From: Bilabrum cf. latius
Lineage: Eukaryota
DNA: 64,000 nt
Assembly: GCA_965178125.1 (NCBI GenBank)
Contig: OZ237750.1
Coordinates: 186,001 to 250,000, forward strand
Direction of reading: 5' to 3'
Under the pieces are notes generated by a model that was not told where the DNA came from, did no database searches, and was given only the letters and a program-made list of their open reading frames with translations. Position numbers and translations under genes: made by a program. This document shows positions 1 to 49,525 of the stretch, piece by piece (position 1 is the stretch's first letter; every line of letters starts with the position of its first letter).

Positions 1-1946
1 CACAGCGGCAGAGGCGCTCCCCACGGGCAGCAGAACCGACGGGTCCTGCGACCCCGATTGCGGAACCGATTGCGCGGCGCCGGTGGCCGGCAGGAGGCTC
101 CGTCGGTTGTAGACTGCAACCCCATACCTGTGCTGCTCCACGGGTGGAAGCGCGGGGCCCGACCCATCCATTTCTTTGGAAGCATTGCCCTTGCCCTTAT
201 CCTTGCCCTCTCCCCCTGATGATGCCCCTGATGCTGCCGCCTGCTCCTGCCCTGTGGACCCGGAGCCCGAAGCAGCCGCGGCGGCAGATGCACCGGACAG
301 CTCAGCCGCCGGGCACAGGAGGAGGGATGCGTCAGGGGAGAAGGACAGCCGCCGCACGAAGGAGCGGAGGGTGTCGTCGCAGAACAAACGGCGGGTAGCG
401 GCTGGCTGCGACGATGATGAGGCTGATGATGATGAGGCTGATGATGACGATGGCCTGGTGCCCCCTGCTGGTGCGCCCCCGTGCGCCGCACCCGCGCCAA
501 CCCCGATGGTGGACAGGCTGGCGATCTCACGCAGGATCCCCCGTCCCGAGTTGCCGGCCTCCGCGGCGCCTGCGGAACCATCCGGAGCCAAAAGTCGGCG
601 GGAGGCCGCGGCAGCCGTGGCGGCGTGACTCGCCGCGGAGCTCGCGGGGGTATTCCCCCGGGTGGCACCCCCCGCGTAGGGGTCATTCACCTGGTACACC
701 TTGACGGATCGATCGGCCCCCGCAGTGGCCAGCTGCCCCCCGCACGCCGAGAAGGTGACCCCCTGAAAGAACCCGCGGGACTCCCCGTGGCCCAGTTCCT
801 TGATGAGGCCGTTGAGGGGCTGCTTCGGCTGCCGCCCCGGCTTGCGCGGCGCCTGGGCGGCCTGCCCCTGGCTCGCATCGAAAAGTGCACGCAACCCCTC
901 TGCAGCTTTCGCGTCCGACGGAAGCTCTGCGGAACCCGGCGGCGCCGCGCGCACGAGCGCCTCAGCTGAGGTGGTTCCGGGTTGGGGCAGCGGAACCGGC
1001 CCCCAAACCGTTGCGCGGCGGTCGAGGCCGCACGCGGCGAGCAGGATGTGCTGGCTGGGCAGCGGGGGCACAGAGGAGATAGCTGAAGACGAAGAGGGTG
1101 CCGACGACCCCGCCCCCGCACTAGCGGCAGCCGCAGCCGCCGCGGCTGCAGCTGTCGCTTGCTAACCCGACCCTGACTAGTGCGCACCGCCCTCGTGTTC
1201 CCTGGTGCTCCGGATGGGCCCCCAGGCCAGGTCCACGAGCTCGTGACCCAGGGCTGCGGAACCTCCCCGGGCGCCGCGCACTCCCCCCACCCGGGGGCCC
1301 GCGGGCGCCTCTGGCTGCAGCCTCATGGTCAGGAGGCTCTCTGTGCCCTGCACGAACCTCCACCCGAAAGAATGGCCTCCGCCCCCGAGCCAGCCCAGCG
1401 CACCAGCCTAGCCGGCCTCTGACGATTTCTGCGCCTGGGCTGCCGAGGCGGCCGCGGCTCGCTCTCGCTGCTCGAGGGCGCGTCCCGGAGCGAGCACGCA
1501 CACGAAGCCGTCGTCGCCGGCAGAGGCGAGGTACCGGCCACATGGGCTCCACCTGCGAGAGCAACAACACATGCAGGCAAGAGGGTTGCGATTTGTTGTT
1601 GGTTGTGGTAGTCTTCGTGCAGCGAAGGTCGTGTCAGGTGGGCTCACCTGACTGCGTTGATTGCTGGCGGCCGTTGCCCCAATGTCAAATGAACTTTGCT
1701 AAGCTCGCAATGAAACCGAAGTCTGAGTGGAAACTGCTCTGGAGTCGCTGTCTTGAACGTGCCATCGGTCAATCTGGCGGCTGCCGCGCTATCCGTCGCC
1801 TCAGATTCTGCCTTCGTGGTACTGGCTACTCTCCACAGCAATATGCTGCTGTTGTCGCCGACCGTCGCTAACAATGGTATCCTAGGGTGAAAATCGAGGC
1901 CTCTGATAGGACCATTCGCTGCGTGAAATTGGTAAAACAAGCTCAT
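1..1946 (-). CDS. CHAF1B: WD40 protein, chromatin assembly factor 1 subunit B (p60/Cac2)-like; 3' end outside window
   Basis: MSLFYQFH..PIRGLDFHP..LATVGD..ILLWRV; AINAVR|WSPCGRYLASAGDDG across a GT-AG intron at 1553-1647; later GFFQGVTFSACGGQLATAGADRSVKVY resembles CAF1B repeats. Frame stays open through in-frame TAGs (e.g. 1408-1410). Confidence 0.65.
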
Positions 1947-2214
1947 CGGAACACGGATTGCACCGATCTATCGTTGAGTAGATGAATCCTTGTAGACTGT
2001 GGATCTCACGCGACTCATCGGTAGAATGCATAGCTATTTGAGGGACAAACGCCTGCATTTTGATAAAAAATACGGCGCACGATGCGAATAGAAGGATTTC
2101 ATTTGAAACGTAAATGAGGTATATTAAAAAGACCGGAGCTGCATCAGGGCTATCGTCACGCCGCCTTCGGGCAGCTCTCCGTACATTCCGACATAGAATA
2201 TAATACATATCTAT

Positions 2215-3216
2215 ATGATGGTCGTATTGGTTCATAAAGTATCGATTGGAGTGTTTCTGGCTCAATACTTCGGATACGTTGCTTTCTCGGCGTTCTTGCA
2301 ATTCTTCTTCTACCGGCGGGGCAACGCTTACAAGCCAAATGGGGGCAACAATCCTGCTACATCCTGGAAAACACAGCCTGAGCCCGGTCGGTGTGGCAGC
2401 CTTGGGGCAAAGGGTGGCCGCGCCGGCGCGAGGTGGTGGCCCATCCTTCCGGGCTCCCAAAGGAAATACGGGAGGCACCGGTGGCAATGGCTGTTCGCGT
2501 CTTATAATTTATTGCAGGCATCCATTATGGCTGGGCTGGTGGCGGAGGCGACGCAGCGACGGTGGAACGGCTTGGCCCTCTCGTGGAGAGAAGTAGGAAT
2601 CGATCCGGCCGCGACTGCTGAGCAAGTGGTCCACATTATTTGGTGCATGGTTCTATCCATTGCTTGGTAGTCCGTCTTAGAGTACATTTGGCACGTTACG
2701 CTGCACCTGGAGCCTCTCTATTCGTGGGCCCATCGGATCCACCACTATCCGAGGAGCCCCGAGCCGTTCGACGATTTGCTCATACACCCGCTGGAGGCGT
2801 TCGGCTACAACTGCATTCTGTTCTCTCCCTCGATGTTCTCCCAGCACTGGACCGCCTTCTTGGCGTACATGGTCGTGTTGGGGACGTGCGGGGTGCTGGA
2901 TCACTCGGGCGTCAGGGCGGTGGCGTCTGTGCCGCTGCTCTGGCTGGTTCGCGAAGGTTCCTCCCCTGAGGAGAAGGCGGGATCTGGCCGGCGGTGGGGC
3001 TTGGTGTGGGTGCCACTGTACGATGCCAGGGAACACGATCTCCATCACGAGCTCGTGAACGTGAACTTTGGATTTCCAACCATGCTGCTCGACCGCCTGT
3101 GCGGGACATACGCACCCCCCGAATCGAGGCTACGATCCAGGGAACAAGGAGATATTGGAGAGCAACAGAAGCAGCTGGTAGTTCGGGATGTGGCTGAAGC
3201 ACCGTGCGACGACTGA
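2215..3216 (+). CDS. Fatty acid hydroxylase / sterol desaturase family protein (~333 aa)
   Basis: Reading TAG 2668-2670 as Gln joins two ORFs and restores the His boxes HVTLH, HRIHH and HDLHH plus IHPLE; ends TGA. Confidence 0.85.
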
Positions 3217-3751
3217 TGCACCTCCACAGTGATCTAGGTACCGGATGGGATAGGCAGGTGAACAGCAACTCGAGGTTGAAAGGCGACACACAAGGCGACC
3301 GGAAGCAACTTCTAGAATAGACCTAGACCCTATAGAATACTAGGCCGCTATCCGGGTGGACAAGCCTCCCAGGTCCCAGCTCTCGACTCTGATGAGCAAC
3401 TCTGAGGAGCGGCAGGTAGACACCATCGATCCGGAGCATGCTGTGCTAAAAGCATCCATTTTGCACGCACACAGAAGCAGGCGCATGCATACGCATAGGA
3501 TGATGCACAAACGCATCAATTTGGCCCAGACAGCAGCCTGCTTCTACGGACGGGCCATGCACGGGCTGGGCTGTCTCTGCCTGTCGGCGGAGTCCTTCCG
3601 AGACGAAGCCAGCATGATGCAGCTTGCCGATTGCAGCAGTGTTGAATAAACATGTAGGAACTTTCTCTTTCTGGTTTGTTCTGAGCGCGCGCCTTTCCAG
3701 ATAGGCATATCCGGATCTAGCGACGCCTCCAGCGAACCCTGTCGAAATTTG

Positions 3752-12521: not shown

Positions 12522-12577
<56 letters not shown>

Positions 12578-13436: not shown

Positions 13437-13552
13437 GGAAACAGAGCTACTTTGTTAAATTAAATCTGTTGCACTTGCGCAATTAAACCTTACTTTCAAG
13501 GGAAATCTGATTTTATTGTTTGGCCGATAGCCATATCTTTCTTGCCAATACC

Positions 13553-15657
13553 ATGCTGGCAACGCTCGCAGTTTTGGTGGCATTAAGTGCCAGTGCATAT
13601 GGTGAAGTCTCTCGAGCGGCTGAGATCCGCAGACTGAGAGACATGGTAGCACAGGCCAAATCCAGCGGGGCGCAACCGATGGATGCCGTGAAGGCTGCCC
13701 TTGCCTCCAGGCTTCCTCACCCGAAGACACTGATCGGGGATGGGTCCACCACTGCTTCCACAAAGTACGGAACAATGGTTGGCTCCCTGTCCGACAAGAA
13801 CAAGACCAAGAACTTCTTGGGTGTGCCTTTTGCGAAGCCGCCCACCGGTCCACTAAGGTGGCGTTCGCCCCAGAACATCACAGCGTTCCCTCAGTCGCCG
13901 TACGAGGCAACCTGGTTCAAAGATCCTTGCCCATAGAACTCGAATGCATTCGTGTTCGCGGCAACCCCGAGCGAGGACTGCCTGTACATGAACGTGAGAC
14001 CCAGTGCGAACAACTTCACATCGTCCCAGAGTTTCTACCACAGAAATTGATGACCGTGCTAAGAGTTCGCGGCTTATCTATATCAACAGGTTGATGTTTC
14101 GATTGTCTGTATCATCGCAGATCTTTGCCCCCAACAAGTCCCCGCCGCCAGGTGGATTCCCTGTCATGATTTTCTTCTATGGGGGCTCATGGGACACTGG
14201 CGCAGCGTCCTTCCCTCTCTACTGGGGAGACGACGATGAGAGCCTGGTCGATGACGTCATCATCGCGTGAGTACGCATGAATGCATCGCTTGCGATCCGC
14301 CTACACGAGACCCCGATGCTTGCTGCCAAGTCGTTCGAGAAGCTCCGATCGCCCCCTGCACCGCTCCCTGACGAAGAGCTCTTTGTTCTGATACTCATCA
14401 CACCGCTCCCCGAAAATCTGATCACACCACAGCACCGCCAACTACCGCCTCAACGAGTTCGGCTTCTTGGGCTCGGCCCAGCTGCAGAGCGAGTCTCCCG
14501 ACGGCTCCACGGGCAACTTCGGGCTGCAGGACCAGAGGGAGGCCATGAGGGTGCTCCGGGAAATCGCCCCTGCCATCGGCGGGGACGTGTCTCGCTTCAC
14601 GATCTTTGGGGAGAGTGCGGGGGCGGGGAGCGTGTCGAACCACCTGATCAACAAGCGGTCCTGGGGCCTGTACAACCGGGCCATCGCGGAGAGCGGGCCA
14701 GAGGCGCAGTGGATCGCGCAGCCGTTCGAGTACGCGCAGGCCAAGTTCGACCACATGGCGCACAACCTGGGCTGCAACAAGTCGGATTCGTCCGAAGATG
14801 GGGCGGGACACGTGGAGTCCACCCCAGCCGAGGTGATCGCGTGCATGCGCAGCAAGAACATGTCCGAGATCCAGGCAGCGGAGCATGGGCTCGTGGGCGG
14901 CCTCGTGCAGTGGTCCCCCGTGGTGGACGGCGTGGAGCTGGACGACCTGCCATTCCGGATCGCCCAGCGCGGCGGCATGAACCCGGACGCGGACGTGCTG
15001 TTCGGATCCAACGCCGACGAGGGGACTCTCTTCGTGCGGCACATCAGCCACGACATCACTGATGCGGAGTACAAGACCTACCTGAACCAGCAGCTGGGCG
15101 ATGAGGTCGGCAAGCTGACGTACGTCAAGTACCCCCCTTCCGATTACAAGGATCCATGGTGGGCAGCGACCCACGTACTCGGCGATGGGCAGATGTCCTG
15201 CGCCGCTCGCAGGTCGGTTCGCTGGGCCAACGTAGCGTACCAGAACGCGGGCACGAGCTCCAAGAGCTTCTTGTATTTCTTCCAGCACCCGTGGCTGGTG
15301 ATCGACCTGGTGCAGGCCGTGGACCCCAACGAGAGGCTGGGCGTGTGCCACGGGAGCGAGCTGCTGGGCGTGTTTGACCTGACCATCGGCATGTGGGATG
15401 ACGCGGAGAAGGAGCTGGGCAAGAGCTTCGTGAGGTACTGGACGAATTTTGCGACCAACGGGGTGCCATCTTCGGAGGGTGATCCGGCGTGGCCGGCTTA
15501 CACGAACGCGACCGACGTGGCGATGCAGCTGGACGTTGGCGCCAACCTGACCACTGTGACTGGGCTGAAGAAGGACAAGTGCGACTTCTGGGACCAGCAC
15601 ATGTTCGTGCCGTGGCCCGCCGTGTTTGGCAACCTGACGACCGCGCCGTACAACTGA
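13553..15657 (+). CDS. Type-B carboxylesterase/cholinesterase family, secreted (paralogue 1)
   Basis: Signal peptide; FLGVPFAKPP.GPLRW; CP(TAG=Q); SEDCLYMN|IFAP; GESAG, NADEG and CHGSEL catalytic motifs; introns 13994-14120 and 14267-14432. Confidence 0.93.
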
Positions 15658-29955: not shown

Positions 29956-30656
29956 GGTTGTGAAGGTGTATACTGGAGGAACGACTCGGACTTGATCCTG
30001 CAAGGATTGTGACAATAGGAACAATCCGTCTGGGTCGTGAGGGAGGCGGAGGACGGCGAGGGGTGAGAGCAGGATCAGACCAGGTGGAGCTGCACATGGT
30101 GGCCCCACTGGCAAGGTGTGACGAGAGAGCATAACAGGCAGTGGGACCTTGTGGCACTCAAGTGGCCGCGGATGATCCTGCGATTCCTGGGGAACACTCT
30201 TTAATTTCTTGATGCAAGGTTGGAGAACCCCCTTTCGGAATCACAGGGTCTAATCTCCACTGCTTGTATTGAGTCGTTCAATTCGTTCAATTCGTTTACT
30301 ATGAGACAAATCCACTGTATGAGCCTGTCTCAGGTGGTAGGGATTTCACCCTTTCAAAATGAAATTCCTCATGAGGCTACACTGGCTTCGTGCAGGTCTT
30401 GCAGTGCGGCACCCGAACAGGCAGGCTGACTGCTGGGCCAACTGTGGATGGAACCTAGTGGCACGGCGCTCATTCTGTACTGGTTTGATATCTACCAGCC
30501 AGCACTAAGACCCGCAATATTTCGTTCCCGAACAGGTGGATATCTAGGTCAACCTGAAGCACTGGATAAAGGACGACCCACTGGCATTGGCATCCTGGAT
30601 ATGTGCATGCATTCGCAAGGCGCGCTTCAAAGCAGCTGGCGGATCACACGACCATA

Positions 30657-32059
30657 TCAGGTTCTCCCCGCCGCAGCCATGGCATATCCTTTCGCTATCC
30701 TGCACATGCGAGCCAGCAGCCCGTGGATCTGGAGCCTGGACCCGCACCCGTCAAGCACCCTCATCTGCGTGTACCCCACCTCGCGCAGGAAGTCCAAGAG
30801 AACGTTCTCTGGAAGGTTCACCGACGCCGGGTTGGCACGGATGACTCGAAACAGCGTCCCCACGATGTCGATGGCCGCGTAGCCCTTCATATAAAGCGCG
30901 GTCATGCCCTTGAATGCGCGGTCAAAATCGCAGTCTCTCGCGGCGCACACTACGTCCTCCACTGCCCTCGGGTGCGGCTGGTCGCACACCTTGTACACGT
31001 TCTCCTCAGAAACCATCCCGAATCCCGCCACGGTGCTCTGCAAGTTGTTCAAGGCGTGCCTCATGTCACCCTCGGCCGTGAACAGGATCGCCTCGAGCCC
31101 CTTGTCGCCTTGGTCCCTGACCACCTTTTCCATCTCGCACACCTCCACCAGTCTCCTGAGGATCTAGGCGTTGGAAAGGCGGGAATAACGGAGAACGGCG
31201 CACCTGCTCTGTATGGGCTCGATGATCTTGGTGCTGTTGTTGCAGGCCAGCGCGAACCTTGTTGTGTGGGAGTAGATCTCCATAGTGCGACGGAGGGCCT
31301 GCTGCGCTGCTGACGTCATGGAGTCTGCCTCGTCCAAGATGACGAGCTTGTGCCTTCCCGGGGGAAGGGTGACTCTTCTCTAAGCGAATGACTTGATCTT
31401 CCCCCGGATCACGTCGATGCCACGGTCGTCCGACGCGTTGAGCTCCAGGACAGCGTCCCTCATCGCTGGGCCGAGGAGTGCCCTGGCCAGGCACAGCACG
31501 CTCGTGGTCTTGCCTGTGCCTGGGGGTCCCTGCAATACGCGGTTAATCTTCTTCTCAATGCAATTTAAAGGTGCCATGTTGAAGCAAAAAGGGTCTCGTT
31601 GTGGGCAGGCTTGTCCCTATCGGAAATACTCACGGCAAGAATAACGTTGTTCATATTGCCCTGAGCAGCAATCACCTTCAATCGCTCCACGATAGCTTCA
31701 TTGCCGACTATATCTTTCAACTGCATACGGATAGACATCGGCAAATTTCTCATTTGTACGGTCTGATACGCTAGTGGATGCTAGCGAGCACATTGTAATC
31801 TGCGAGTGCTCCTCACTTCCAGTGGACGATATTTTTCGACCCAAGGAGCCTCTAAATCACCCGATATTGTAGACTTAGATCCCGCTGCTGACGAGGACGA
31901 GCTTGATGCAGACTTTCCAGCGCCGGAGCTCGGAGCAGGCTTTCCTTCGGCTTCGGGAAGGCTAGGTGCAGCAACACTTTTTGATGGCTCATCTGACTCC
32001 ATTGCTGCTGCTCCCGATCCTGTCTTGGCTTTACTTTCGGCGACTCCCACCGAAGCCAT
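30657..32059 (-). CDS. RFC2: Replication factor C small subunit (human RFC2 / yeast Rfc4)
   Basis: [32 protein letters not shown](TAG)[34 protein letters not shown]; two introns; two in-frame TAGs at conserved Gln. Confidence 0.95.
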
Positions 32060-32182: not shown

Positions 32183-33008
32183 ATGGGTGTATATGCAGTT
32201 TACTGCACATTGTGCGTTGTATTTGCGGCACTGGCGTTTGGATAGCCGAGAATACCAGCACGATTCTCTGCAAACGTGACCATTGAGTCCCACTTGCTCG
32301 ATAAGGTGAGACGGTGAAAACACATTGCCTCTGATTAGCACTCGCAGTAATATGCTTCATGATATACAATGTGTCATGTTAGCACTATAAAAGATGAATC
32401 CCTTGCAGTCATTGAAGTATCCTCCTTGGAAGTCAACAATGGAGTTGCTTTACGATGGCCAGAACCGCAGGGCCAGACTGCAGGTTTTCTCGGGCTTAAA
32501 CGAAGGCAAGACATATTACAGACTGTTTGACCGCAAGAAAGAATACATGATTACAGGGGGTTCAATGCCCGACTGCGTGCGAGAATACCTCGCGGAGAAG
32601 ATGCCGGTACCCAAGCTTCCTGACGGATTGGCGCAGCTGGATAGTTCGCAGGATCTGGACATTGGTGGGGTGTCGTGCAGCGCATGGGAAGTATCTCTCG
32701 AAGATGGACTCGAAATTGTCCGTGTTTGGGCAGACAAGCAGTCCGGCGTTGTCCTCAGGCTCACGGACTTTGGTGAGGTGGATGCAACAGGCACCATGGG
32801 GCCTCTCATGACCTACACTCTAACCAATGTGAGGCTGTTCCCTGACGCCAGCAGCAGTGATGCCGAGAGTGCAGATGCCTCGGCACCTGGGGGCGGGCTG
32901 GCGCCCCTCCGATTTGACCTGCCTGACCCCTGGACGCACAACACGTGCGACAGGCAGGTGGGCGGGCAGCCGTGGCTGCACCTGCTGCACCACTACTTGA
33001 TGATTTGA
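32183..33008 (+). CDS. Secreted protein, possibly ependymin-related fold
   Basis: Signal peptide MGVYAVYCTLCVVFAALAFG(TAG)PRIPARFSANV; intron ~32306-32408; LYDGQNRRAR, IGGVSCSAW; ends TGA. Confidence 0.5.
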
Positions 33009-33203: not shown

Positions 33204-35618
33204 TTAGAAGTACGGAAACTGCTTCACGGGCTAACTCGATGACGCGTCCCCCGCGGCCCCACCTGCCGCGGTCCTCGATGTCCCTGGCCCTGCCTTTGCC
33301 CCGCCGCCTGACTTGAGCATAGATACGTCAACGCCGTCGTTAGGGAGCTGCACGGTGCGCGGCGCCAGCTTCCGAATGGCGTTGATCGCGCTAGGCTGGC
33401 CTCTGCTGGCGGCTACTTGCTCCCCGGGCTTAACCGGCTTCCCGTCTTTGCCCACCCTCTGTGCCCTGACCAGGGTATCATCGGGCCCGCTGACCCCGAC
33501 CTCTTCGACGACCGCGGGGCTAGAGCCCCCCTTGTCCTAGTTCTTCTCCTTCTCCGAGGAATCCTCGCCTGTGTCCCCGTCACCGCCTCCTGAGCCGCTG
33601 TTCCCTGCACCCTCGCCGGACTCACCCGCCCTCTTGCGGTGCGCTGCTCCGAGGAAGGCGCCAACCAGCTCGTCCTCATCGGCCCTGTTCCTCGCCTCTG
33701 CAGCCTACTTCCCGTCCTGAGCAGCCTGCAGCGAACGTTCGTCGTCAAGAGGGTCATCGTCCGAGTGGCTTCTCCTCCTAATGTCCCGGCCCGCGGTGGC
33801 GGTCCCCCCTGCCGCGCTGCTCCCAAAGCGGTTGTTCCCTGGGCCCGTCCCCTTCACGTCAGCCCCCGGCCGAGTGCTGGTGGTTGACCCCAAACCCTTG
33901 AGGGGTGGCAGGGACCCGCCTCCCCTGCCCCCCGCTAGGGGTCCGCCCGTCCCCAAACCAGCCCCACTGCCCCCTTGGCCCGCGTAGGTTCCCGGGGCTA
34001 CATAGGGCGGCTGGCCAAACCCGCCCCCCCCACCGTATCCTCCACCATAGCCCCCACCGTACCCCCCAGGGGCCGCCCCCGGCGCGGGGTAGAAGTTCCC
34101 CTGCGCGTCCTGACTGCTTCCGTCCGGATACCAGTAGTTCCCCTGAGTGTCGGTGCACCCCCCCTGCTCGTCCCAGTAGTTCCCCTGGGCGTCGTACCCA
34201 ACGGAAGAGGCGGCGCTTGCACCTGCATACGATGCACCCTGGGGAACACCGTAGGACTGGGCCTGCGGCGGCTGCGGCTGTAGGTACGACGGCGTGACGG
34301 AAGGGGTGTTGGCGCGGCTTCCCAGCTGCTGAGAGCTGGCAGCGGAACCGCCCCGCTGCGGAAGGCCCCCACTTTGCTTAGATTCCATGTCCTTTTTTGC
34401 GGCTGCGAGTCGGAGGGCCATGGCAGCTGCCAGATCCCCTTCTTCCTGCGCAGCCGTGATGCTGGCCCTCCTGCCCTTGCCATTGCCGCCGTTCTCGCTC
34501 TCTTCCTCGTCTTCGTCCTCGCTGTCGGTGGCGTCAAGCCACTGCGCCGCGGCGTCGGTGCGCTTCTTCTTGTACCTTCCCTTTTCATCTTCATCTTCGC
34601 TCCCTCCCTCTCCCTCCCCGTCCTCACCCGCCGCCTCGCCCTCGGCGCCCCCCTCGTCGAGCCCTGCTGCCCTCCGCTGCTCCATCCTCTCCATCTCAAG
34701 GAGAACCTCCGAGTGCAGGTCCAGGACGTGTGCCTTGGCAAACAAAAAGAAAGACGCGTTCGATGTCAGTGACCTGAGAGCGATGGCTAGCCGGGTCCAT
34801 CCAAGGGCGGCAACAAACGCGTGCGCGAGATAGGCCGCCGTGAGTCCCCCGCTGAACCTGGCCTGCAGGTGCTCTGCAAGCCCTAAAGCGAGCACGTGAG
34901 CGAACACAGCAGCAGCGACCAGCGTCGCCCACCACCCGGAGAAGCTGACGATGCTCCGGTTCTTGTTGAGCAGCCCGCAGGTCATGACCGGCAGGAGCAG
35001 TAGTGCGAGCACCAGCTCGATCACAGGGAGGGCGAGGGCGGCTTCGAATGCGCCGGCCTCCTCCACGCTCGAGGTCGACGCGAGCGAGGTGATCGAGTTC
35101 GAATCCTCCTGCGCCGCCGCGGCGTCCAGCGAACCGTCGACGGCCGTGAGGTCCTCGCCGCTATCGATCGCTTTCGCAATCGCAGAATCGTCTGCGCCTG
35201 CCGGGTTCTCATTCGACACCGGATCAGGGCGACCCATGGAGCCCTCCACGGCGATGAGAATGATAGAAGTGATCAGCAGTGCAGCCGTGCTGAGCAGCGC
35301 ATCGTAAAAGACGCGACGGACCTGCTATTCTTCCTTCTCATCTGCCACTGGTATCAAACCACAGGCCAGGATTACCGGGTCTCCGCTGGACGGATGGATT
35401 CCGATCGAGCCAACCGTAGTTTCACGGGGATCGTTGTCAGGCGTCACCCCTTCAAAGGGAGCGAGCGCAACGTACGGCTGCATAGATTCTTGTTTTGCTG
35501 CGCGCTTTCCTCCGCTGGCACCCCTGTTTGCTCGGCTGTCAGTGGCTGATGCAGCACCATCGCCATCGCCCTCGCTTCTGCCTGATCTGGCGCTATCACC
35601 GCCTTTGCGACCCGACAT
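33204..35618 (-). CDS. Hypothetical membrane protein (~804 aa; several TM segments, acidic and Gly/Tyr/Gln-rich low-complexity tail)
   Basis: One frame through TAGs at 35325, 33705, ~33537 and 33231, ending at TAA 33204-33206. Confidence 0.7.
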
Positions 35619-36108: not shown

Positions 36109-36848
36109 TTACTGGATGGAACCAGCAGCAGAGGCGATACGCGGCCAGATGTCGGCGCACTCCTTCGCCACGGGGCCAGTGATAGCAGATCCCTTCATGT
36201 CACCCTTGGGGCTGACAATCACGCCGGCGTTGTCCTCGAACCCGATGAACACACCGTCGGGACGGCGCCACATCTTGCGCTGGCGCACGATAACAGCGGG
36301 GTGCACCTTCTTCCTAAGCTCAGGCTTACCCTTCTTCACGGTCGCCAACACGTAGTCACCGACAGCTGCGAACGAGCGGGGGCAGATGCAGCACAAGGGC
36401 AAGTGCAGTAAGAATGTCTCTTTTCAACTGCATAACAAATCCAAAACGCTATGCCAGCTAGCAACTATGAGGAGTGGTATGTCAAAAACAAACTTGTCAT
36501 CGAAATCTCCTCACAGGCGGCGGGCAGACGGTTCAACCTAGCTCCGATGCCAGATACGGCAATGATGTACAGGTTCTTGGCCCCGGTGTTGTCCGCGCAG
36601 TTCAGCACGGCACCGTTGGGGAGACCGAGAGTCATACGGATCTTGGCGCCTGCGATAACTTTACGGAGAGCTAAAAATTCGCTTGGAAGAGGTGAATTGC
36701 ATGTCTCTCTACGATTCGACCATCGTCAAGGCCAGCTGCACTGCAGCCTACGAAGTTCTCCTGCGTATTGTCCGGACTAAATGATTTTCATATGTGCATA
36801 TTCTCTATACTAACCTGTAGCCCCTCCGCGTCCACGCTTGGAAGCCAT
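36109..36848 (-). CDS. RPL23: 60S ribosomal protein L23 (uL14)
   Basis: MASKRGRGG ... [21 protein letters not shown] ... [26 protein letters not shown]...[32 protein letters not shown]; two introns; ends TAA. Confidence 0.97.
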
Positions 36849-37216
36849 ATTACCAGAAAATAGTTTCTGTTGACGATTGCTGGTTGTATCTGGTAATTTG
36901 GATCGGATCAAGTGTAACCCTATCAAATGCGCGGCGCCGGCGGCGGATCCGAAGCGGAACCATCTTGAAGCAACCATTTCGATTCGTACATGGTATGCGA
37001 TACAAATGTGCAGGACGATTTTTTCGTAAGTCAATGGAGCATTTACGAACTAGAATCGGCTGCATTTGATTCCTGTTGCGAAGTACTCGCAAGAATGCAG
37101 AGATATGCAGATTGGGGCTGACGTGGACATTGTGACAGCCTTGTGTACAACATCTTGTGTTCGCAGCACCGTTTGGAGTTCTTTACTGCTTTCATTAGTC
37201 CGACAGATCACTAAAA

Positions 37217-40200
37217 ATGTCTAGTATATGCGAAAAAGGCGGAGGATTCGAAGCTAGAGAGGCAGACCATGTCTAGCACTTCTCAACCCTCATGGTTGGG
37301 GCCGGTGCAGCAGCAAGGTCAACTCTTTCCACTATGGATGAGAATGGTTTTCGCAGCCCACTGTTGTTAGTGGCCCGCGACGTGCCACCTTTGCGTTCTG
37401 ACGCGGACGAACCATCTCCGCATGACGAGGCAGCGCTGCAAGTGGCAGGCGTAGGTGCTCGCCCACCTAGGAAAGGCTCCCTTCAGGAGGCCCTCGTGCG
37501 AGCCACTCGGGAATGGATGCACAGGAAAAATCACGTTCGCGAGCTCCGCAGCCGGCTGGAGCAGGAGAGCGCCGGCGATGGAGCAGCCCGAGCAGTTGCT
37601 CCGGAGCACGCCTCGCTCGTTCGCTGCTTCGACGTCACGACGCGGAGCGGAGATGCTGCTGCTGATGGACAATCTAGCTATGGAAAACCTGAACAAGAGA
37701 AGAAAACCGCGTGTTTCGCGCTGGGGGCAACGGTCGTGCAGCTGGATGCGAGGGGCAGGACGGCCGGCCTCGACGACGGCGAGCGAGTGAGGTATGACGA
37801 GTGCCTGCTCGCCACGGGCAGTGTCGACATGTCGGCTGGCCTGCGGGAGCACGTGGCTGACGAACGTTCCATGAGGTTCGTTGGCGGGATCCGCACGTGG
37901 GAAGACCGGAAGAAGCTTCGCGGGCTGCTGGAGAGAGGCGGGGCTCACATCACGGTCGTGGGCGGGGGATGGGAAGGCGTGGCTCTAGCAAGCGCGGCGG
38001 TGGCCGACCGATTTTCAGCCAAGTCTCTAAAGCAGCAGAGGAGCCGAGCGCAGGGGGGTGCCTCAACTCGGAATCAAAACGGAGGCCCGGAGCAGGCGCG
38101 GGCCAAGGCGCAGGCAGGGGCGCGGGTCACGCTCGCATTCCCCGAGAGCTCCCCGCTGCGGCGCTCGTTGCCGCGCTACCTCTCTGCTCAGCTGGCGAAA
38201 GCACTCAAATCTTCGGGCGTGCACATATAGCCGTTCAGTTCCGTGTCCAAGGTGGAGGGATACCCGCCCCTCTACGTGCCCGGTCAGGGCGCGGCAACCC
38301 AGGTCAGGCGCAGGCGCAGGGGCAGGGGCAGGGCATAGGCAGGGGGCCAGTCGATGCACGCAGAGACGAGCACGGAGGCAGGCGGGTCACCATCGGAACG
38401 ATCGCATCCCAAGGCGGCCCAGGTGACCCTGCGACGAACGTTCGATGCGGCCCGCAGCGTGCGTGTGGTCACGGACCGGCTGGTTTTGGCGCCGTCGAGG
38501 TCCCCAGCTGACGTGTCGCTGGCCGCGGCAGGCAGGCCCGGCGACATTGGGAGCGTGGGCGGCCGCGTATCCCTGCCACGGCTGCAGCTTGAGCTAGATC
38601 CCCACTGCGGTGGGTTCGTGTGCAACCACGAGCTGTCTGTGTCGGGTGGGCTGTCGGTGGCAGGGGATGCTGCCTCCCTCTTCGTCCCTATCTTAGGGAG
38701 GAGGCGGCCGCAGGTGCTCGAAACCGCGGTGCTCACGGGCAGGCAGGCCGCTCTCAGGATTGCAGGGGAGGCTAGGGAACAAGCTGTTTCCAGGGAACAC
38801 GAGGAGCTGTCCAGAGGCCTGCCCTGCCGCCGAGTGATCCTGCCGTCGCTCGGACTGCGAGTGCACGAGGTGGGCGACTGCGACTCGTCGCTCGAGACGT
38901 GGGGGTTCTTCCTACCCGGGCCCGCAGGGAACAACGGTGGTTCGAAGGCGTGTGAGAAGCGGCAGGGGGCTGCATCAGGCACGCCGGTCCCGTCGACCGA
39001 GGCTGGCGATTCGGACCTGAGATAGTCTGCAGACAGCCGAGGTCCGCTGGAGCGAGCCATGATGCGGAGGAGTGGCAACCGTGTAGCGTCATCATCCAGC
39101 TGGTAGTCGCATTCGCCCGATGTGCAGGAGCAGGATCTCATGCCTCAGTACGCAGGGGAGAGCGGCGTGCGGAGCGTGCGGTTCGGCGACGATGCTAATA
39201 GCGACCCTTTCGGGACTGGCGGACGCAGCGAGAGGAAGCCTGGTGCGCGACGGGGTAGCAGGGGTGGCTCTATTTCAACCCGTTAGGGTGGGTCTAGTTC
39301 TCCCCTCGAGGGAAACGGGGTGTCGAACGGGGGTCAGGGGTCCGGGGGCCCCGCGATGCGAGACGGGGTCGTGTTTTACGTCAGGCACGGTAGCGTGGTG
39401 GGGAGCATGCTGTGGCGTAGGACCAGAAAGACTGGCGTTGAGGAGTGGTTGGCAGCGGAAAAGAGGCATGCTGTTGCCCTCGGGGTGGAGGAGAATGACG
39501 GCGATGGAAGTGCAGGTGGGAGCGGACGGGCCGGATCGGCATCGGTTGACAGCGGCGGGAGGACTTCATCATAGTCAGGAGACCACGAAACGGCGGCCAC
39601 CACGGCCCCGAACCCCACTTCGGATCCCGGGCTTGACCCCGAGATGGGGGCAGAGCCCGCTGTGTCGGTGATCCGATCCCTAATTGAGCGGACGTGCGCC
39701 GACCCGGTGCTGGTGAACGACGGCGACGACGCTGTTGCCGGCGAATGGGCACTCAGGGCACTGCTCGAGGGGGCCTCCGCGCGGGTGCTGGAGGAGGACG
39801 GGGCCATCGAGAGAGGGAGGGCCACCGGTGGATTGGTTCCGCTGCGGAGGGACGGCGCGGCGCCGCTGTGGTCGGCGCGAGATGGCAGGGTGTGCCAAAT
39901 GATGGGGCTGCCACCTGGCCCTGACGTGCAATACAGGCATCCCCACTCGGGTACGAACGTAGATGAAGCTGGTGCCGCCATTCGCGAGGCTAGCGATGCT
40001 CCAGTCAGGGGCATTGCGCCCTCGAACGGACTGGAGGCCTCGAAGACGATCTACTCTGCAGCCGCCATGGAGGCGAGGGGGGCGGTCGCACGGCGCTGGG
40101 GGCTACTAGAAGGAGCATTCAGATCTGACACGAGCTCATCTGAAGTCGCCCGAACGGAGGTTGGCGGCCGCGAGACGGAAGGTCCCTGCCCCGCATCCAC

Positions 40201-40450
40201 TTTGATTGCCCGGGGGCAAGCCTCCCCGCTGCGGCTGGTCAGTCGCTGGGAGCCAGCCGTGGAAATGCGGACGCAGAGTGGTAGGCGCAGGAAGATGGGC
40301 ATGGCCTCCAAACGAGGTGCAAGTGCTAGAGACGGGACCAGCGCGCTACAGTCTGCGGCCCGATGGGCAGGTGCAGAGGAGCTGATCCCAGCCCCGTCGA
40401 GCGTGGGCACGGTAAGACAGGTAGACGAGCAAGGCCAGATTCGGGTCTGA
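37217..40450 (+). CDS. Apoptosis-inducing factor (AIF)-like FAD-dependent oxidoreductase with long insertions
   Basis: VGAGAAA, YDECLLATGS, ITVVGGG, LPRYLS, LELDPHCGGFVCNHEL...VAGDAA....LGRRR and GVVFYVRHGSVVGSMLW match AIFM1-type motifs. Single frame through TAGs; 5' exon uncertain. Confidence 0.75.
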
Positions 40451-40601
40451 AAGGAAGGATCGGGCCAATCCTGGATAAGTCAGGCGATACCGATGACGGG
40501 CGTCACCTGGCAATTCTTGTTCACAGATACGTTATTCCTCGATCAGACGCAACAACACAGACAGCTCATCACGTCAATCGCCACACACGCCACAGCCTTC
40601 C

Positions 40602-43600
40602 TCACCAACACAAGCAGCCGCACCAGCTCAAGATTGCAGCGCCGGCAGACCCAATGACGCACACCAAAGACAGAAGTGCCGGCATACCGACAGTTGCCAA
40701 CCGCTGGGACGCGTACAGCACGGGATTTGTCAGCAAGAACAGCTGATGGTCCCCAAGCACATCCAGGGAACAGTGCGAGTGCCCCAGCGAACCAGCAGTA
40801 CAGCTCATGCCCCACACACAGCACCCCAGCACGATGACGTCCTCAAGCAGTCGCATCGGCGCCGACCACCTCCGCACGTGCGCGCTCAGCCTTGCTGCCA
40901 TGGCACGTGCTTCCGACTCCTCGAACCCCTCCATTGGGTCGCTTCCACTGGAGCACCTGGACCATGCCAGCGCCTGGGAATCCCATGCTAGCAGCTGCAG
41001 AAGCCGGATACCTACGATGGTTGCTGGGCTCTGAATTAGTTTGCGACGAAGCATACCCACGTCTCTGTGGAGCACCTCCCAATGCCATTCGGCCCTGCCT
41101 GTGTCGACCTGGTGGCAGCTCGTCCCGCAGGAGTCGCCACAGCAGCCACGCTACTATCCATCACACACAGCTGTCGACCGTAGTCGATTAGCTCTACTGG
41201 TGCCAGCCTGTCCACGGCTACCAGGTCTAGAGACTGGCAGTCCAGGCTACTCCCCTGTTTGATTTGGTAGCTCTTCGAGAACTGAGGCTGCGGATTGGCA
41301 CGATGGTCCTGTCGGCACCTGCTGCCTCAAAATTTGGCTGCCAGAGGATGAGTCCTCCCCTATCTGCAGGTGCCCTAGCCTCACGCTGTTGCTGGATTCC
41401 AGTGCAAAATGCTGGAGCCTGCTGTCGCCCGCACATGGTTCACCTGTCGTGTGCGCTTGGCTGTCGATGCTGTCGTCAAGACTGTCCACAAAGATCTATC
41501 CGGCATGAAGCGGAGATGCTGACCTTGCAAGCCTATTATTAGTCGTTGCTGCTGGGTCGGAACCGACCTGAATCTAGCCGTTCGGCTGCCATGGTACAGC
41601 TCGCCCGTCTTGTTGCAGCCGATGCTGGTGGCGAACTGATCCAGGTGCTCGGGCCCGTCTCAGCACCAACGATAAGACATCGCCGCCTGGCACAACCTGC
41701 ACCAAAGACGCGTCGTGGCTGCAATCGCCGCACAATGTGCCTCGGGAGATATTGGACAGGGCAAGCCTGAGCACAACACCACCTACCAAGCCGACGGCCA
41801 GGCAAGCTGCCACCAGCTGCAGCCGACCAACAGCAAGAGCCGACAAGAGAAGCCAGTACAACAAGTATCTGTACACTGATAAGATGGATGCTGCTGCGTC
41901 CCACAGGCTCGAGCTGCAGCCGCACAGCTTTCCGGGCTTGCCACTTCCTAAAGTTGGTTGATTCAGTTCTACTACAGCTGCTAGTACACCAGTCTGATTT
42001 GCTTCAGTGTCGTTTAAGACCCTACCATTGAAACGTTGGTCGACGTGTTCCAACAGCAGGCTTTGCACCTGTGCCTGCGCCTGCGCCTCTGCAAGCTAGC
42101 TCACGACTGCTCTAGCGTGAAGCTATTGGCCAATACCAATGGCACAGACGCTGGCTGCGGCAAGCATGGTTAGGACATACGTAGCTAAGGCAATTGGCCC
42201 ACTGGCAGCGCTTGCCCACGTCGCACCGCAGGAAGCAGCACTCACCCCCAGCCCGCCCTACATGCACGGCAAGGATACAGCACTGCGTACTGTCGACAGC
42301 TACGCTGCAGGCAGCCACGCGCCGCCCTCTGCTCCCGGCCTCTCCCGTCGTAGCACAGACACCAGCTGCCGCGACAGAGCACCAGCCGACCGACCACGCT
42401 GCGCCAGCATTTCACCAGCGGATCCGGGGCTTCGAAAGATCACCGATGGGAGCGGATCGATGCGAACTGACACGTCCACCTCCATGGGCAGATACGGTGG
42501 GTCCTGGGGGATGCTTGGAGTCAGAGGCGCGGCTTGGTCTAGCGCAGGCTGCACTCGCTAGGGCGGGACTGGCGCTCTGATGTCCAGCACCTGGACGACA
42601 ATGTCACGGACAGTGGCCACGGATATGTTGTTTGGATTGCCCCCAACCGTTTCCTTCTTTGATGGGTCCCACTCCCCCAGCACGTCCATGACATCTGCAT
42701 TGATTTCAGCTTCAAGCCGGCGGCGCTGCAGCTCCGATGGGACGGGATACCGCAGACCCGGCCCGGCATCGCCTTCAATCTGCGCGGGATGGGCAGGCGG
42801 CCACGTGCTACGATCGAACAGCAAAGTGAACGTCACCGTGGCATGAGACGTCGGCTCCCGCTGAACCCATGCGGCATCCCACTACAAGCTACTGCCTGCA
42901 TCCGGTCTGCATTCCAGGGCAGTGTTTGCTGGTCCATCGCCATCGATGTCGTACACTGGGGCACGCACCTCACCCCAGCTGCTCCATCCTCGAAATGACC
43001 CTTTCAGCCCGGCTGGCTGCGCATCTGCCCTCGGGACAACTCCGCCCGACTGAAGCAGTGCTGGGTATCCTCCCCATCGCGTCAGCCATGGACGTGCAAG
43101 GGAAGCGATGCCATTCCACCCCCCAGACCTGTCTTTGGCGTTCGCTTCCAGCCCTACATCAACGGCCAAGTGCGCTGGATCGTCACATCGCATCCTACAC
43201 ACCGGTCGCATGAAGTACGCACCGAGTGGGCTCGTTTGCCCGCACTCCCAATTGCCGCCTCTGATGGAAGGCAGTGAGGTCTGTGGGCTGGGCGCGGTCA
43301 CTCGCCACAGTGCAGCGCCCCTATACCTGGCTTTGGGGCCCTGCGCCGGCACAGGCGCGAGGACCTCCCAGGGCCTGCCTGGAGTAGGCGGAGTATTCTT
43401 GGGACCGTCCCAGGGTGGGCCCTAACCCTGCGGGCGCAGCTTCGTGGCATCCACTGTCGTGTTTGGGTACTGGCCTGCCGTGCTGGATTGGGCGCACTGG
43501 CACATCTACCCGCCCACAGCAACGGCGCGCGTGGAGGCGGCGGCAGGGTAGTCAGAGTGCACGACATCGATCGTCCAGTTGACCAACTGCGGTGCCGTGC

Positions 43601-45589
43601 CAGGCACATGGCGCGCTGTGGAGAACCTGCTATCATTCCGAGCGGTAGTAGCACCATGCTATGCCCGGCTATTGCCAATCGATTCGTCCGGCGTGCGTGT
43701 GCTTGGCCCTGCCGGGGCAGGTGGCAGCTCTGTCTGTGTGACATAGTATGCCATCGAGCACGCAAAGCGGGGTATCCGTGTCCCAAGCAGCGACCCGCGC
43801 TGCTGCTCAACGAGCCATTCAGCTACGGCAGTAAGCTGCTGCACAGATCCCGGCCCCGCGCCGCGCGGTATATCCGGGGAGCAGTTCCTGGCCGCTACAC
43901 AGGACGGGTCATCCAGCAGCACCTGCATCGGCTGCACGCTCGGATATCCATGCGGGGTGCCCTGCGGGCCGTTCTGCCCGCTGGCAATTTCAAGAGTAAA
44001 ACACTTGACCGCGCCCCCCGATCCGTCCAGCCGCTTTAGTTTGGTGCTGTTGGACCGGATTGCTGTGCTGAGCACGGCCTGCGCGATTCCAGGCACCGAC
44101 CAGATCACCTGCACCACGTGTCGTGGGTTCACCCTCCACGGATATTCGGCCTCTTCATCGGATGTCATACCCTCACGGTCACGCAACTAGTGATTGGGTG
44201 CATCTTTTGCTGTTCTATCGCGGATGGGCCCATGGCGATGGGTTGTTGCTTGGGGCGGATGCCGCCACGGCACCTGAAGAGCCATCTCGGCCACGGTGCC
44301 AGGGGGATACACCACCTTAAGAATCTGGTGCCACCGGTTGTAGAGCCCGCCACCACCATCGCCTCGTGGAAACCGCTGCGTCCCGGGAGCAGCGGGCTCT
44401 GCCAGGGGAATCCCAATCACAAGCCCGTTAGCGACGCCCTGGTTGTCCGCCTCGAAGGCGGACAGGTTGGCAAGTTCGGGCCTGTTTGGGCGCAGAGCGC
44501 ACTGTTCTGCTGTCGCTGTGCGGGGCGGTGCGTGCCAGGCGATTGCCTGCCTGCACGTGTCATTGGGCGCGATCGGCACACCGTCCGGAGTGCATGCCGG
44601 GGACAGGGTGGCAGCTGGGCATCTTGTCAAAGGTACGAGGGCCACTGCAACGCGCTGGTACGACTGAGTCAGGGGCCAGCCTACCGCTGCTTCAGTGCTG
44701 TGCCCGTTGCGTTCGAATATCCAGGCGTTCGGGCCTCTCTTGTACTGCGGTGTCCCGCCCGAAGGCACAGGCATCCACGGAACGGGGGCCTCCCCCGACC
44801 GGGCATCGCCCCAGTATCGGCCGTAGGAAGACACGAGCAACGGACCGTCCTTGCTTACTGAGAAACTCACGGGCAGGTCATGCACTAGCACCCATTCCTC
44901 CGTGGTCCACGGCTCCACAGACCTTGTCGGCGCGTGCAAGGCGCTGCTTGCTGGGGGAAGCCCTCTGGCATATGGAGCCTCCTGCTTGCTGAGCGCAATC
45001 TCAGTGTACCCACCCGAGATTGCGGATAGGGATGGGTTGATTCGGTTGGGCCATGGATACGATATATTTCCAACTGAGGGAAGACCAGCTGCTTTGGCAG
45101 CTTGTGGGCTGTCTGCCATGCCGGAAGGGGGCAGCCCGCCGGGCCCGCTTGGCCACCTCCACTAGGCAGTGTATGGACTTGTTGACCCCATGAGCTGAGG
45201 TGGGCGAGGAAACATACTCAGATTGCAACCAAACTTGTCTGCTCCATCCGGACTAGGCCTGGCTTCAGCTAGATCCCGAGAGAGAATCCGACTCGTTCGG
45301 ATGGACGACTTGGACTTGCCCACTCCTATGGCACTGGGGCCTCGCGTGGCAACCCATGTAGCTGCGCGAGGCTGACTTTAACTGACTATGAGAACGTATG
45401 ACCTTGAAAATACCCGCTACGAGATTCTTGTGATCGTGCCTTACCGTTGCATACTGGGTCGTTTAGATTATGCTTGTGTATTGTGCCGTAGTTGAGCAGT
45501 ATTTGAGGTCCTGCCCGCCGCATGCCATCGTAAACATTAACGGCTTGGCATATTGCACATAAAATGCACGCAATGATCATGCTGAGCAT
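40602..45589 (-). CDS. Large hypothetical secreted/membrane protein (~1600 aa)
   Basis: ORF fragments starting 45119, 44186, 43352, 42836, 42554, 42068, 41489 and 41075 share one frame, separated only by TAG. Signal-peptide-like first exon at 45589 with probable intron ~45363-45444; hydrophobic segments near C-terminus. Confidence 0.6.
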
Positions 45590-45688
45590 GGCTTATGCAC
45601 TGGCTTATTTGCCTGCACCGGTGGATTGCATCTTCATCTTTAACACCGGACTCCGTTCGGAACAGGTCACTGGCAGCCAGCACCATTC

Positions 45689-47821
45689 TCACAGAGCTCG
45701 TCTTGCCCTTGCACGAGCCTCATCACGCTCCGCATCCGTCTTGAGAGCGCTTTCACACGCTATCGCCTGCACAACGCGGATCCCGAGGTACCGGAACCTC
45801 TGCCCGGTTGCCAGCTCCTGCCGCCGCGCAAGGCCCAAGACCTCCCTCGTTGCATCGTCGTACTCCTTCTGCAGGACCTCTGCGCGGCGCCGAAGTTCCG
45901 TAGCCTCCGCTTCAGCCCTGATTTGCCCGTCCCGCTGCTCGAGACGGAAGGACCGGTTCGGAGAGAACAGCCCACCCAGGCCAGTACCGCTGCCAGTCAG
46001 GCCAGCCCCTGACCTGGACCTGCCCAGCCCAATCGACCCGCGGAGAGCCATCGCGCCAGGCGCCGCTGTGCGAGACCTGGACAGCGTCCCGCGGGTCGCA
46101 CTCGTCACACTGCCTCTGGTAGAGGCCACGGCCCGGGCCGAAATCCTGACCTTGACGGGCATCGCCAGCTCGCGACCCAGGGCACTCCACCTGGAGGGAG
46201 CGTCGGATGACACGTCGCCCAGCGACTCGCCACTCGCGGCGCCGGTTCCGCTCGCGGCGCCGTCGCCGAGGAGCCGATCGAGCTGGTTGCAACCGGCTGC
46301 CGCGGTGCCCTTGCCTTTTCCGTGGCTCGCCCCAAGCGGGCCTCCAGCTGGCGCACCTGACCCGCCCCCCCTCCACCGACTCGCCTCCTGCTGCAGGTCA
46401 AGCAGTTTCCGTTTGATGGCCGTCCTCTCCTCTACAGCGTCTAGCAGCTGGGTTGTCGAAGGATCCGAAAGTTGTTTCTCGAGTCGAGCCACCTCCACCG
46501 ACACCGCCGCTTTGACCGCCCCCTAACACGCCACTTTGACCGCCTCTGCGACCCGAGCTGCCACCCGCTACACTTCCTACAAGTGCGCCTCCTTCCCAGG
46601 GAACGAGCGAACCTTCCCTAAGGGTTCGTCGTCCTTCCCGCTGCCTTCTTCTTGGCCGTTGTCATCCTCACCAGCAGGGTGTTCCCAAGAGGGCAGCCCG
46701 ATCAGGGTCGTCTCAGCATCGGCCCCCGCCTATCCCGGCGCCCTCATCCGAACAGGTCCGGAGGCGGCGAGCAGCTCCTTCCCACTCGTCACACCGGATC
46801 CCGCTAGCTGCTGCCTGGCCCTCGCGGTCGGACCCCCCCGGAGGCCGATCCGCCTCCCGTGCTTCCCCGCTGCCTCTTCCGCCTTGTTCCTCAGCCCCAC
46901 CAGGAACTCTGTTCTCTGGGCGTGGGGCGTACCCGCCCTGTCCCACAGGGGAAACAGTCTTCGGAAGGTTGCAACCACCTCGTCACCGAGACCTAGGCCG
47001 CCGAGAATCTCTCGGCTGGTCCTGTTCCACCGCCGCTGGGCCTCCTGCTCCTCGTCCCATCGCCTTAGATGCCTCTCAATGGCGGCTTTGCTCGGCTCAC
47101 CGGAAGTGCCGGCTATGCTGCGGCTTCGAGATCTGCGCTTTTCAGTCGTCTTCCTGTCTCCTCTGGCAGCGGGTCTTGACCCCGAGCGGCTCACCGCACT
47201 ACCTGCCGAGCTTCCAGACAACAAGCTGGTCAGAGAACCGCGATGAACCTTCTCTACACCGAGCTGGCCTGGCACGGCTCCAAGCATGGGCGGGTGCTTG
47301 CCACGGCTGGCGATGGCCGCAGATGGGGACGCTGCTGGGTGACCCTTGCCCTTGCCCTTGCCCTTGTCCTTGTCCCCTTCATTGTCGAACGCAACTGCAT
47401 GCTCGTCACGGTGCGAGCTACTGATAACCTTACTAGATGCTCTTGCAGCCGTATTGCGGGGCAGTGCAGGCGGGATGGAGGCGGGCTGCAGCAGCCTGTC
47501 GAGCTGGGACCCAGGGCGCGGCGCCTCAACCTGGTTCCGCAAGCGTGATCGCACGACGCGGCCGGGAGGTGAGACTGGCACCCCGAGCCGCTGCAGCTAA
47601 TCAAGGTCCAGCTTGCGCTCGGGCGGATCCAGGACACCGCCGCTCCCGCCGATGCCATGCGCACGCTCTCCAAGGGGGCTGTTCTCGAGCGCCTGCTGGA
47701 TCGATTGAGCGCCGCTCTTACTTGCCCGCTATCCGTCCTCCCTCTGCTGGTTCTAGTCCTCGCCAACGGCTAGGTCCTGCAGGACGTCACGGTGCTGGGC
47801 GTCAGGGTCTGCTATTGATGA
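45689..47821 (-). CDS. Coiled-coil hypothetical host protein, 5' part cut off by the virophage insertion
   Basis: Frame open (TAG=Q) from TGA 45689 up to the GC/AT junction; no ATG near the junction and TAA follows ~30 nt into the element. Confidence 0.6.
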
Positions 47822-49517: not shown

Positions 49518-49525
49518 AATATATT

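Follow-up and report, generated by a model that had tools for sequence, protein, structure and literature searches.

Evidence that a protist nucleus reads UAG alone as glutamine and that an integrated virus-like element uses the same code

We analysed a 64,000-nucleotide stretch (the window) of contig OZ237750.1 from assembly GCA_965178125.1, in which a GC-rich eukaryotic segment abuts an AT-rich, virus-like integrated element, both with genes that contain in-frame TAG triplets. Very probably, the protist nucleus in question reads UAG as glutamine and ends its proteins mostly at UGA and otherwise at UAA, and the element belongs to the same system and is adapted to it. The boundary between the two parts, placed at 47821/47822 by an earlier note written from the letters of this DNA, is genuine: the G+C content is 0.61 in positions 1-47821 and 0.31 in positions 47822-64000, and contigs from sequencing runs have loose ends at 47821 and 47825 that lead into other sequence. 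Judging from the ribosomal protein uL14, the replication factor C small subunit RFC2 and introns of spliceosomal type, the GC-rich part is nuclear and its genes are cellular.

The first line of evidence comes from open reading frames (ORFs) in positions 1-47821. Under the standard code the longest ORF has 700 codons. Reading TAG as sense raises this to 3614, reading TAA as sense leaves it at 700, and reading TGA as sense brings it to 731; the five longest ORFs with TAG as sense comprise 3614, 1591, 1362, 1104 and 996 codons. The frame of a giant gene of 3613 codons holds 23 TAG and neither TAA nor TGA, compared to 4-16 TAA and 34-87 TGA in each of the other five frames. Altogether, 13 host ORFs or exons contain 66 in-frame TAG in 11,959 codons, and TAG makes up 12% of the host glutamine codons. 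That these ORFs show no in-frame TAA or TGA is set by construction and in part a circular result, since TAA and TGA served to delimit them; the comparison of ORF lengths is the independent test. The statement in the earlier note that host genes are broken only by TAG stands for exons, and fails for whole genes, because GT..AG introns also interrupt RFC2, uL14, carboxylesterase paralogue 2 and others. Its statement that host genes end in TGA or TAA agrees with the 12 tabulated host ORF ends, which comprise 11 TGA and one TAA; TGA is also the commonest stop triplet in the GC-rich part. UAA and UGA evidently keep terminating.

The alternative that survives best is that TAG has a dual meaning, being glutamine inside genes and a context-dependent stop at some gene ends. 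Context-dependent stop codons are known from Condylostoma, the karyorelictids and Blastocrithidia (in the last for UAA). The ORF ends were defined by TAA and TGA, so the data of the window are compatible with such a role, and the second-to-last codon of the element's integrase is a TAG. However, none of the three gene ends fixed by homology is a TAG (RFC2 and an ependymin-like gene end in TGA, uL14 in TAA), and the 66 in-frame TAG of the host ORFs compare with 62-94 in each of the other five frames, as would be expected of an ordinary sense codon; the same five frames hold 81-212 TGA. We consider a dual TAG improbable.

The amino acid was examined by masking TAG as X and aligning RFC2 with 120 homologues, the N-terminal exon of carboxylesterase paralogue 2 with 120 and the integrase with 149. 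The three alignments have 17 TAG columns, of which the 14 that are at least half filled were used for counts. Glutamine is the commonest residue in seven of these 14, compared to 9 of 18 true CAA or CAG codons and 9 of 713 other residues in the same three queries; because the proportion matches that of the true glutamine codons, TAG behaves exactly as a glutamine codon. The residues opposite TAG, whose tabulation the earlier note had proposed, are accordingly enriched for glutamine. The log-odds over the 14 columns are +31.8 bits for glutamine (+16.5 from five columns of host genes and +15.3 from nine of the element), followed by -16.7 for glutamate, -17.1 for arginine, -17.2 for lysine and -22.6 for serine. 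By these comparisons, UAG is a sense codon read as glutamine in both the host and the element.

Individual columns show the same pattern. Both TAGs that the earlier note cited in RFC2 are present: at residue 66 (31380-31382) 108 of 120 homologues have glutamine, and at residue 138 (31164-31166) 53 have glutamine, 46 glutamate, 11 methionine, 9 aspartate and 1 histidine. In the carboxylesterase exon, the first TAG (29635) is opposite glutamine in 92 of 120 homologues, the second (29596) opposite threonine in 52, and the third (29572), in a C-x-Q motif, opposite glutamine in 119. The CP-TAG form of this motif occurs in both carboxylesterases, at 29572-29574 and at 13934, as had been noted. In the integrase, at least half of the 149 representatives have a residue in 9 of the 12 TAG columns; three of these are conserved, with glutamine in 127 of 148, 87 of 149 and 91 of 144, whereas the other six are variable, with leucine, proline, lysine, serine, glutamate or asparagine the commonest. 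Moreover, the two carboxylesterase paralogues, which are 93% identical over 1200 nucleotides, differ at the site of 29635 as had been observed before: paralogue 1 has CAG (RWRSPQ) and paralogue 2 has TAG (RWQAP-TAG).

TAG could instead be a sense codon for glutamate, lysine, tyrosine, leucine, serine or tryptophan, as in other reassignments of UAG. Such a reading draws on the seven well-filled columns with a non-glutamine commonest residue and on residue 138 of RFC2, where glutamate comes close to glutamine. By contrast, the next best candidate after glutamine, glutamate, has negative log-odds, the true glutamine codons have a similar share of such columns, and TAG is exchanged with CAG between paralogues and between orthologues. 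Another amino acid is therefore very unlikely.

A further reading holds that UAA and UAG both mean glutamine, as in the common UAR code (NCBI table 6), and that TAA is just rare in a GC-rich genome. TAA is indeed rare in the GC-rich part (284 TAA against 704 TAG trinucleotides on both strands), and only one of the 12 tabulated host ORFs ends in it. Nevertheless, reading TAA as sense gives no longer ORFs, the host ORFs have 22-28 TAA in each of their other five frames, and in-frame TAA at glutamine positions was searched for and not found. The conserved C-terminus of uL14 also ends at TAA: its last triplets, ATC CAG TAA, include the CAG-TAA end that the earlier note had reported for RPL23, and the end lies one residue past the final position that aligns with solved uL14 chains (query 83 of 84, chain 128 of 129). 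In the element, TAA is the commonest stop triplet, ending 11 of 16 ORFs (TGA ends five), and ORFs of at least 300 codons there comprise 695 codons with TAA as sense, compared to 2082 with TAG as sense. A common UAR code is thus scarcely credible. The three homologue alignments, the ORF lengths and the TAA end of uL14 together uphold the central claim of the earlier note, that TAG is glutamine and that TAA and TGA are stops.

The sequencing runs that contain the stretch are dated 2025 and come from several studies, none of them recorded as RNA. Contigs of two runs, X6 and X7, join over six GT..AG introns (CT..AC on the minus strand) that the DNA runs X1 and X5 retain; we take X6 and X7 as transcript-derived because of these intron-less joins, not because of the run label. 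The depth at the uL14 join is 4339 and 626 in two runs, compared to 5-47 for neighbouring genes, as transcripts should show. Spliced RFC2 is in frame, reads through the canonical RFC motifs, keeps both TAGs and ends in a TGA that coincides with the end of its relatives. Of the in-frame TAGs in RFC2, carboxylesterase paralogue 2 and the ORFs of 804 and 1537 codons, the listed contig pieces of X6 cover 12 and those of X7 cover 6, and these pieces show no other letter; in the ependymin-like gene, X6 and X7 also cover the TAG at position 32243. TAGs are unchanged in spliced transcripts. In none of the four runs is another letter reported at a covered host site, including the CAG or TGG that the earlier note had named as contrary evidence. 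This uniformity takes editing, assembly error and pseudogenes out of consideration: nothing speaks for such an origin except that stop triplets occur in frame, a single one of the three kinds of stop is affected, and Pfam family matches extend across the TAGs in the RFC2, carboxylesterase, TIG/FG-GAP, oxidoreductase and fatty-acid-hydroxylase ORFs, so that we dismiss it.

The AT-rich insert, a point not raised by the earlier note, is by its codon usage written in the code of its host and uses it more heavily than the host does. Its 17 ORFs (at least 90 codons each, TAG read as sense) hold 56 in-frame TAG in 4081 codons, compared to 8 CAG and 89 CAA, so that TAG accounts for 37% of the glutamine codons, against 12% in the host. 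The integrase has an rve core (PF00665, E = 8.8e-08, 32.8 bits, cut-off 32.6) and a C-terminal chromodomain (PF00385, E = 4e-07, 30.3 bits, cut-off 25.1). A public protein collection already contains this integrase as a 551-residue protein read through all 12 TAGs; the entry stems from a 48,603-base ENA contig and was called by a pipeline that used a TAG-recoded table. The P-loop ATPase, a candidate for a packaging ATPase of FtsK/HerA type, matches AAA_10 (E = 1e-05) and AAA_22 (E = 1.3e-05), both under the curated cut-offs, and the ORF of 182 residues that follows, a candidate for an Adenain/Ulp1-like cysteine protease, weakly matches a viral, poxvirus-type cysteine peptidase (Peptidase_C57, E = 0.0045, 16.2 bits, cut-off 24.5). 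The element also has an ORF that matches DUF5754 in Pfam. Relatives of the integrase were found in 25 IMG/VR viral contigs at 26-33% identity, and none of the other 16 ORFs has a match in those contigs. The ATPase has no relative in IMG/VR and no solved relative in a PDB search, which also gave none for the protease-like ORF. A Pfam scan of the ORFs identified no capsid gene (double jelly-roll major capsid protein or penton protein) and no DNA polymerase in the visible 16 kilobases (kb), and "virophage/Polinton-like" is used here as a working label, not as a statement of membership.

At 47822-49100, the contig depth of the element is 548-1132 in X1, compared to 16 for the host, and 27-31 in X5, compared to about 2.5, the ratio varying by run. 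The high depth, together with the loose contig ends at the boundary, argues that the element is multi-copy or replicating. Past 48455, neither X6 nor X7 covers it. Repeats of 76-140 nucleotides, with 7-9 copies per family, sit in nearly every gap between genes of the element (48095-62628), for example at 49935-50010, 59082-59157, 61663-61738 and 62530-62605. The core of the repeat is a GC-clamped hairpin, GCGCCCAGAATTGCGG ... CCGCAATTTGGGGCGC, and for four copies the folding energy is -17.6 to -26.8 kcal/mol (z -3.9 to -4.3), which none of 200 shuffles equals. The hairpin may signal the start or stop of transcription in the element; its 24-nucleotide motif has no exact match in IMG/VR.

The host translation system very probably decodes UAG as glutamine, with termination mostly at UGA and less often at UAA. 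A cognate glutamine transfer RNA (tRNA) with anticodon CUA would read the codon, and the N-terminal domain of the release factor eRF1 would no longer accept G in the third position after UA while still recognising UAA and UGA; both steps are modelled on Iotanema spirale and ciliates. The element is very probably translated by the same system and, as its higher TAG share suggests, has adapted to the host code. Several points weigh against this reading. Seven of the 14 well-filled TAG columns favour leucine, proline, lysine, serine, glutamate, asparagine or threonine (one each) or vary, and one of the seven, the threonine column of the carboxylesterase, is fairly conserved. The host sample is small, with five columns in two gene families, and glutamine at TAG was assigned by sequence comparison. 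ORFs were extended through TAG by construction, so that genes ending in TAG would be hidden. The RNA nature of X6 and X7 is a guess of the tool, which marked X6 as "probably DNA". Neither a tRNA gene nor any Rfam match was found within the 64-kb window, eRF1 lies outside it, and the decoding tRNA, eRF1 and the mechanism rest on analogy.

A metagenome contig, L001, carries in its positions 1-2412 a carboxylesterase, RFC2 and the ependymin-like gene in the same order as the window. Its G+C content is 54%, compared to 61%, its RFC2 ends in TAA, and the identity of this gene to RFC2 of the window is 92% at the protein level and 80% at the DNA level. The two RFC2 TAGs of the window correspond to CAG and GAG in L001, whereas the ependymin-like gene of L001 has an in-frame TAG exactly opposite a CAG of the window (32460-32462). 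On the basis of this one codon, the relative appears to read TAG as sense too. Within its roughly 400 codons, RFC2 of L001 lacks in-frame TAG, which is uninformative alone because about two would be expected at the host rate.

RFC2 of the window shares 87-93% identity with two metagenome proteins; the other matches listed lie at 55-68%, with animal, fungal and algal RFC2 at 62-64%. In the public protein sets searched, the RFC2 proteins of the relatives are only partial (263 and 269 residues), and the window's own host genes have no entry. A tree was built from 68 rows hand-picked from the 120 homologues, namely 38 named sequences, 27 unnamed top matches, the window and its two environmental relatives, with no ciliate among them. 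The window and the two environmental sequences form their own clade on a long stem, with a support of 98 in the Shimodaira-Hasegawa-like approximate likelihood ratio test (SH-aLRT). This clade joins no named group of the tree and stands apart from oomycetes, fungi, animals and green algae, so that the tree neither supports nor refutes the guess of the earlier note that the host is a stramenopile-like flagellate. The macronuclear genome of ciliates is rich in AT, its introns are very short, and in phyllopharyngeans it consists of gene-sized pieces. Our impression is that the chromosome-scale, GC-rich and intron-bearing layout is unlike a ciliate macronucleus, and that the oxygen-dependent enzymes do not point to an anaerobic fornicate.

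PMC11687900 gives UAG alone as glutamine for Iotanema spirale, Protocruzia tuzeti and two phyllopharyngean lineages, about four lineages in all, which bears out the view of the earlier note that such codes are very few. It also reports UAG as leucine in an uncultured rhizarian, UAG as serine in Scotinosphaera, and UAA as lysine with UAG as glutamate in one ciliate. Iotanema spirale, a member of Fornicata, resembles the window in that only UAG is reassigned, to glutamine, with UAA and UGA as stops (PMC11687900, PMC9161772), and PMC9161772 describes a threonine-to-glycine change in the GTS motif of its eRF1. However, Iotanema, of which a transcriptome is known, is a metamonad with an anaerobic and endobiotic life, whereas the window is GC-rich and encodes oxygen-dependent enzyme families (a fatty acid hydroxylase and an oxidoreductase). 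Protocruzia tuzeti and the two phyllopharyngean lineages likewise keep UAA as a stop (PMC11687900). Compared to these ciliates, the window is a 64-kb chromosome segment with a host part of 61% GC, more than 14 genes and introns of 83-149 nucleotides. Single reassignment of TAG to glutamine is also described as code 15 of crAss-like and other phages (PMC9523058). Those phages have bacterial hosts and are recoded against the code of the host, whereas in the window one code serves both host and element, and the genes are those of a eukaryote and have introns of spliceosomal type.

For the element, one close comparison is with the endogenous viral elements of Streblomastix strix, integrated virus-like elements that share the non-standard code of their host, in which UAR is glutamine (PMC10120064). 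In Streblomastix both TAA and TAG are glutamine; in the element of the window it is TAG only. The endogenous mavirus-like elements (EMALEs) of Cafeteria and the Polinton/Maverick elements are AT-rich and multi-copy, and carry an rve integrase with a chromodomain, a P-loop ATPase and a cysteine protease. The element of the window is likewise AT-rich and multi-copy, extends over at least 16 kb in a GC-rich protist genome, and encodes a chromodomain-bearing rve integrase as well as a P-loop ATPase with a possible cysteine protease after it. It differs from them in its recoded TAG and in the capsid and DNA polymerase not identified in its visible 16 kb. A full-text search of openly accessible literature found no report of a nuclear code with UAG as glutamine outside Iotanema and ciliates, nor of a virophage-like element recoded in TAG only. 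Codes of this kind are on record; what appears new is the lineage, together with the co-adapted element.

The features of the window are listed in Table 1. Pfam matches of the host ORFs comprise the replication factor C small subunit, two carboxylesterases, the giant TIG/FG-GAP protein, a pyridine-nucleotide oxidoreductase, a fatty acid hydroxylase and a CAF1B/HIR1-like WD40 protein. The carboxylesterase paralogues are inverted and flank the 10.8-kb TIG/FG-GAP gene, which looks like an inverted duplication bracketing that gene. A search with the giant protein returned 12 proteins that share FG-GAP repeats only, at 6-21% query cover, and was useless for TAG columns and taxonomy; PDB searches with the fatty acid hydroxylase and with a mis-cut carboxylesterase exon gave nothing usable. 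The ORF at 32409-33005 of the ependymin-like gene resembles DUF8395/ependymin with an atlas score of 0.93, a recognition under the threshold of the tool and a lead only. An N-terminal exon of uL14 (MASKRGRGG...) lies one more intron upstream of the two joined exons (36729-37289, minus strand), so that the gene has at least three exons.

Two places within the oxidoreductase ORF stand out in the run contigs. At 38305-38333 the depth in X1 is 612, compared to 16, and contigs jump to 31526, 33846, 36952 and 46272; this is probably a dispersed simple or low-complexity repeat. At 39835-39868, contigs of X1, X6 and X7 match over 34 bases only; they skip one letter at 39849/39850 and run out into long loose ends to either side. 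These contigs probably represent another, highly expressed locus with a short stretch in common, rather than a variant of the oxidoreductase gene.

Table 1. Features of the 64,000-nucleotide window (positions within the window)
Feature	Positions	Strand	In-frame TAG	End	Remarks
GC-rich eukaryotic nuclear segment	1..47821				GC 0.61; genes with in-frame TAG
WD40 (CAF1B/HIR1-like) ORF	1..1572	-	3		Extends past the window edge
Fatty-acid-hydroxylase-family ORF	2215..3216	+	1
Carboxylesterase paralogue 1	13520..15657	+	at 13934		TAG in CP-TAG motif
TIG/IPT and FG-GAP gene	16561..27402	+	23	TGA	3613 codons; C-terminal membrane region
Carboxylesterase paralogue 2	27920..30132	-	at 29635, 29596, 29572 and one near the N-terminus		Intron 29421-29511
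RFC2	30657..32059	-	2	TGA	Exons 32059-31817, 31720-31633, 31528-30657; spliced coding sequence of 400 residues; joins in X6 and X7
Ependymin-like/DUF8395-like gene	32183..33008	+	at 32243	TGA	Lead only; intron 32304-32406; 240 residues
804-codon ORF	33204..35618	-	4	TAA	All four TAGs within X6/X7 contig pieces
uL14 (RPL23), last two exons	36109..36725	-	0	TAA	Intron 36366-36514; end CAG TAA
Oxidoreductase ORF	37217..40450	+	7	TGA	1077 codons; pyridine-nucleotide-disulphide oxidoreductase domain
1537-codon ORF	40602..45215	-	16	TGA	Without Pfam family
Virus-like integrated element	47822..64000				GC 0.31; 17 ORFs; cut by the window end, only its end at 47822 inside
Integrase	50985..52640	+	12		rve core and C-terminal chromodomain
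P-loop ATPase, then 182-residue ORF	59949..61584	+	6, then 3
Intron joins in X6/X7	29420>29512; 31528>31633; 31720>31817; 32303>32407; 36365>36515; 45361>45445

UAA and UAG change meaning together almost always, and each lineage that splits UAA from UAG is therefore a test of how eRF1 and tRNAs discriminate them. We further propose, with slightly less than even confidence, that the window represents an independent origin of the UAG-only glutamine code in a lineage that is neither ciliate nor metamonad and has no close sequenced relative, shared by at least one divergent environmental relative, together with a multi-copy virophage/Polinton-like element that is co-adapted to this code and, because TAG makes up so much of its glutamine codons, dependent on it. 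Since the case brings together chromosome-scale DNA, spliced transcripts, a relative and a TAG-heavy element, it could be informative in several ways: eRF1 and tRNA-Gln(CUA) could reveal how the split of UAA from UAG arose, the relatives could give its age, and the case could also show whether a change of code restricts or shapes the traffic between viruses and hosts. In practice, standard gene callers will shatter the proteins of this genome. A 2026 catalogue states that every isolated giant virus comes from a host with the standard code (PMC13524828). If the wider proposal is true, the host and its element would form a natural host-virus pair in which a change of one codon acts as a lock on who expresses whose genes.

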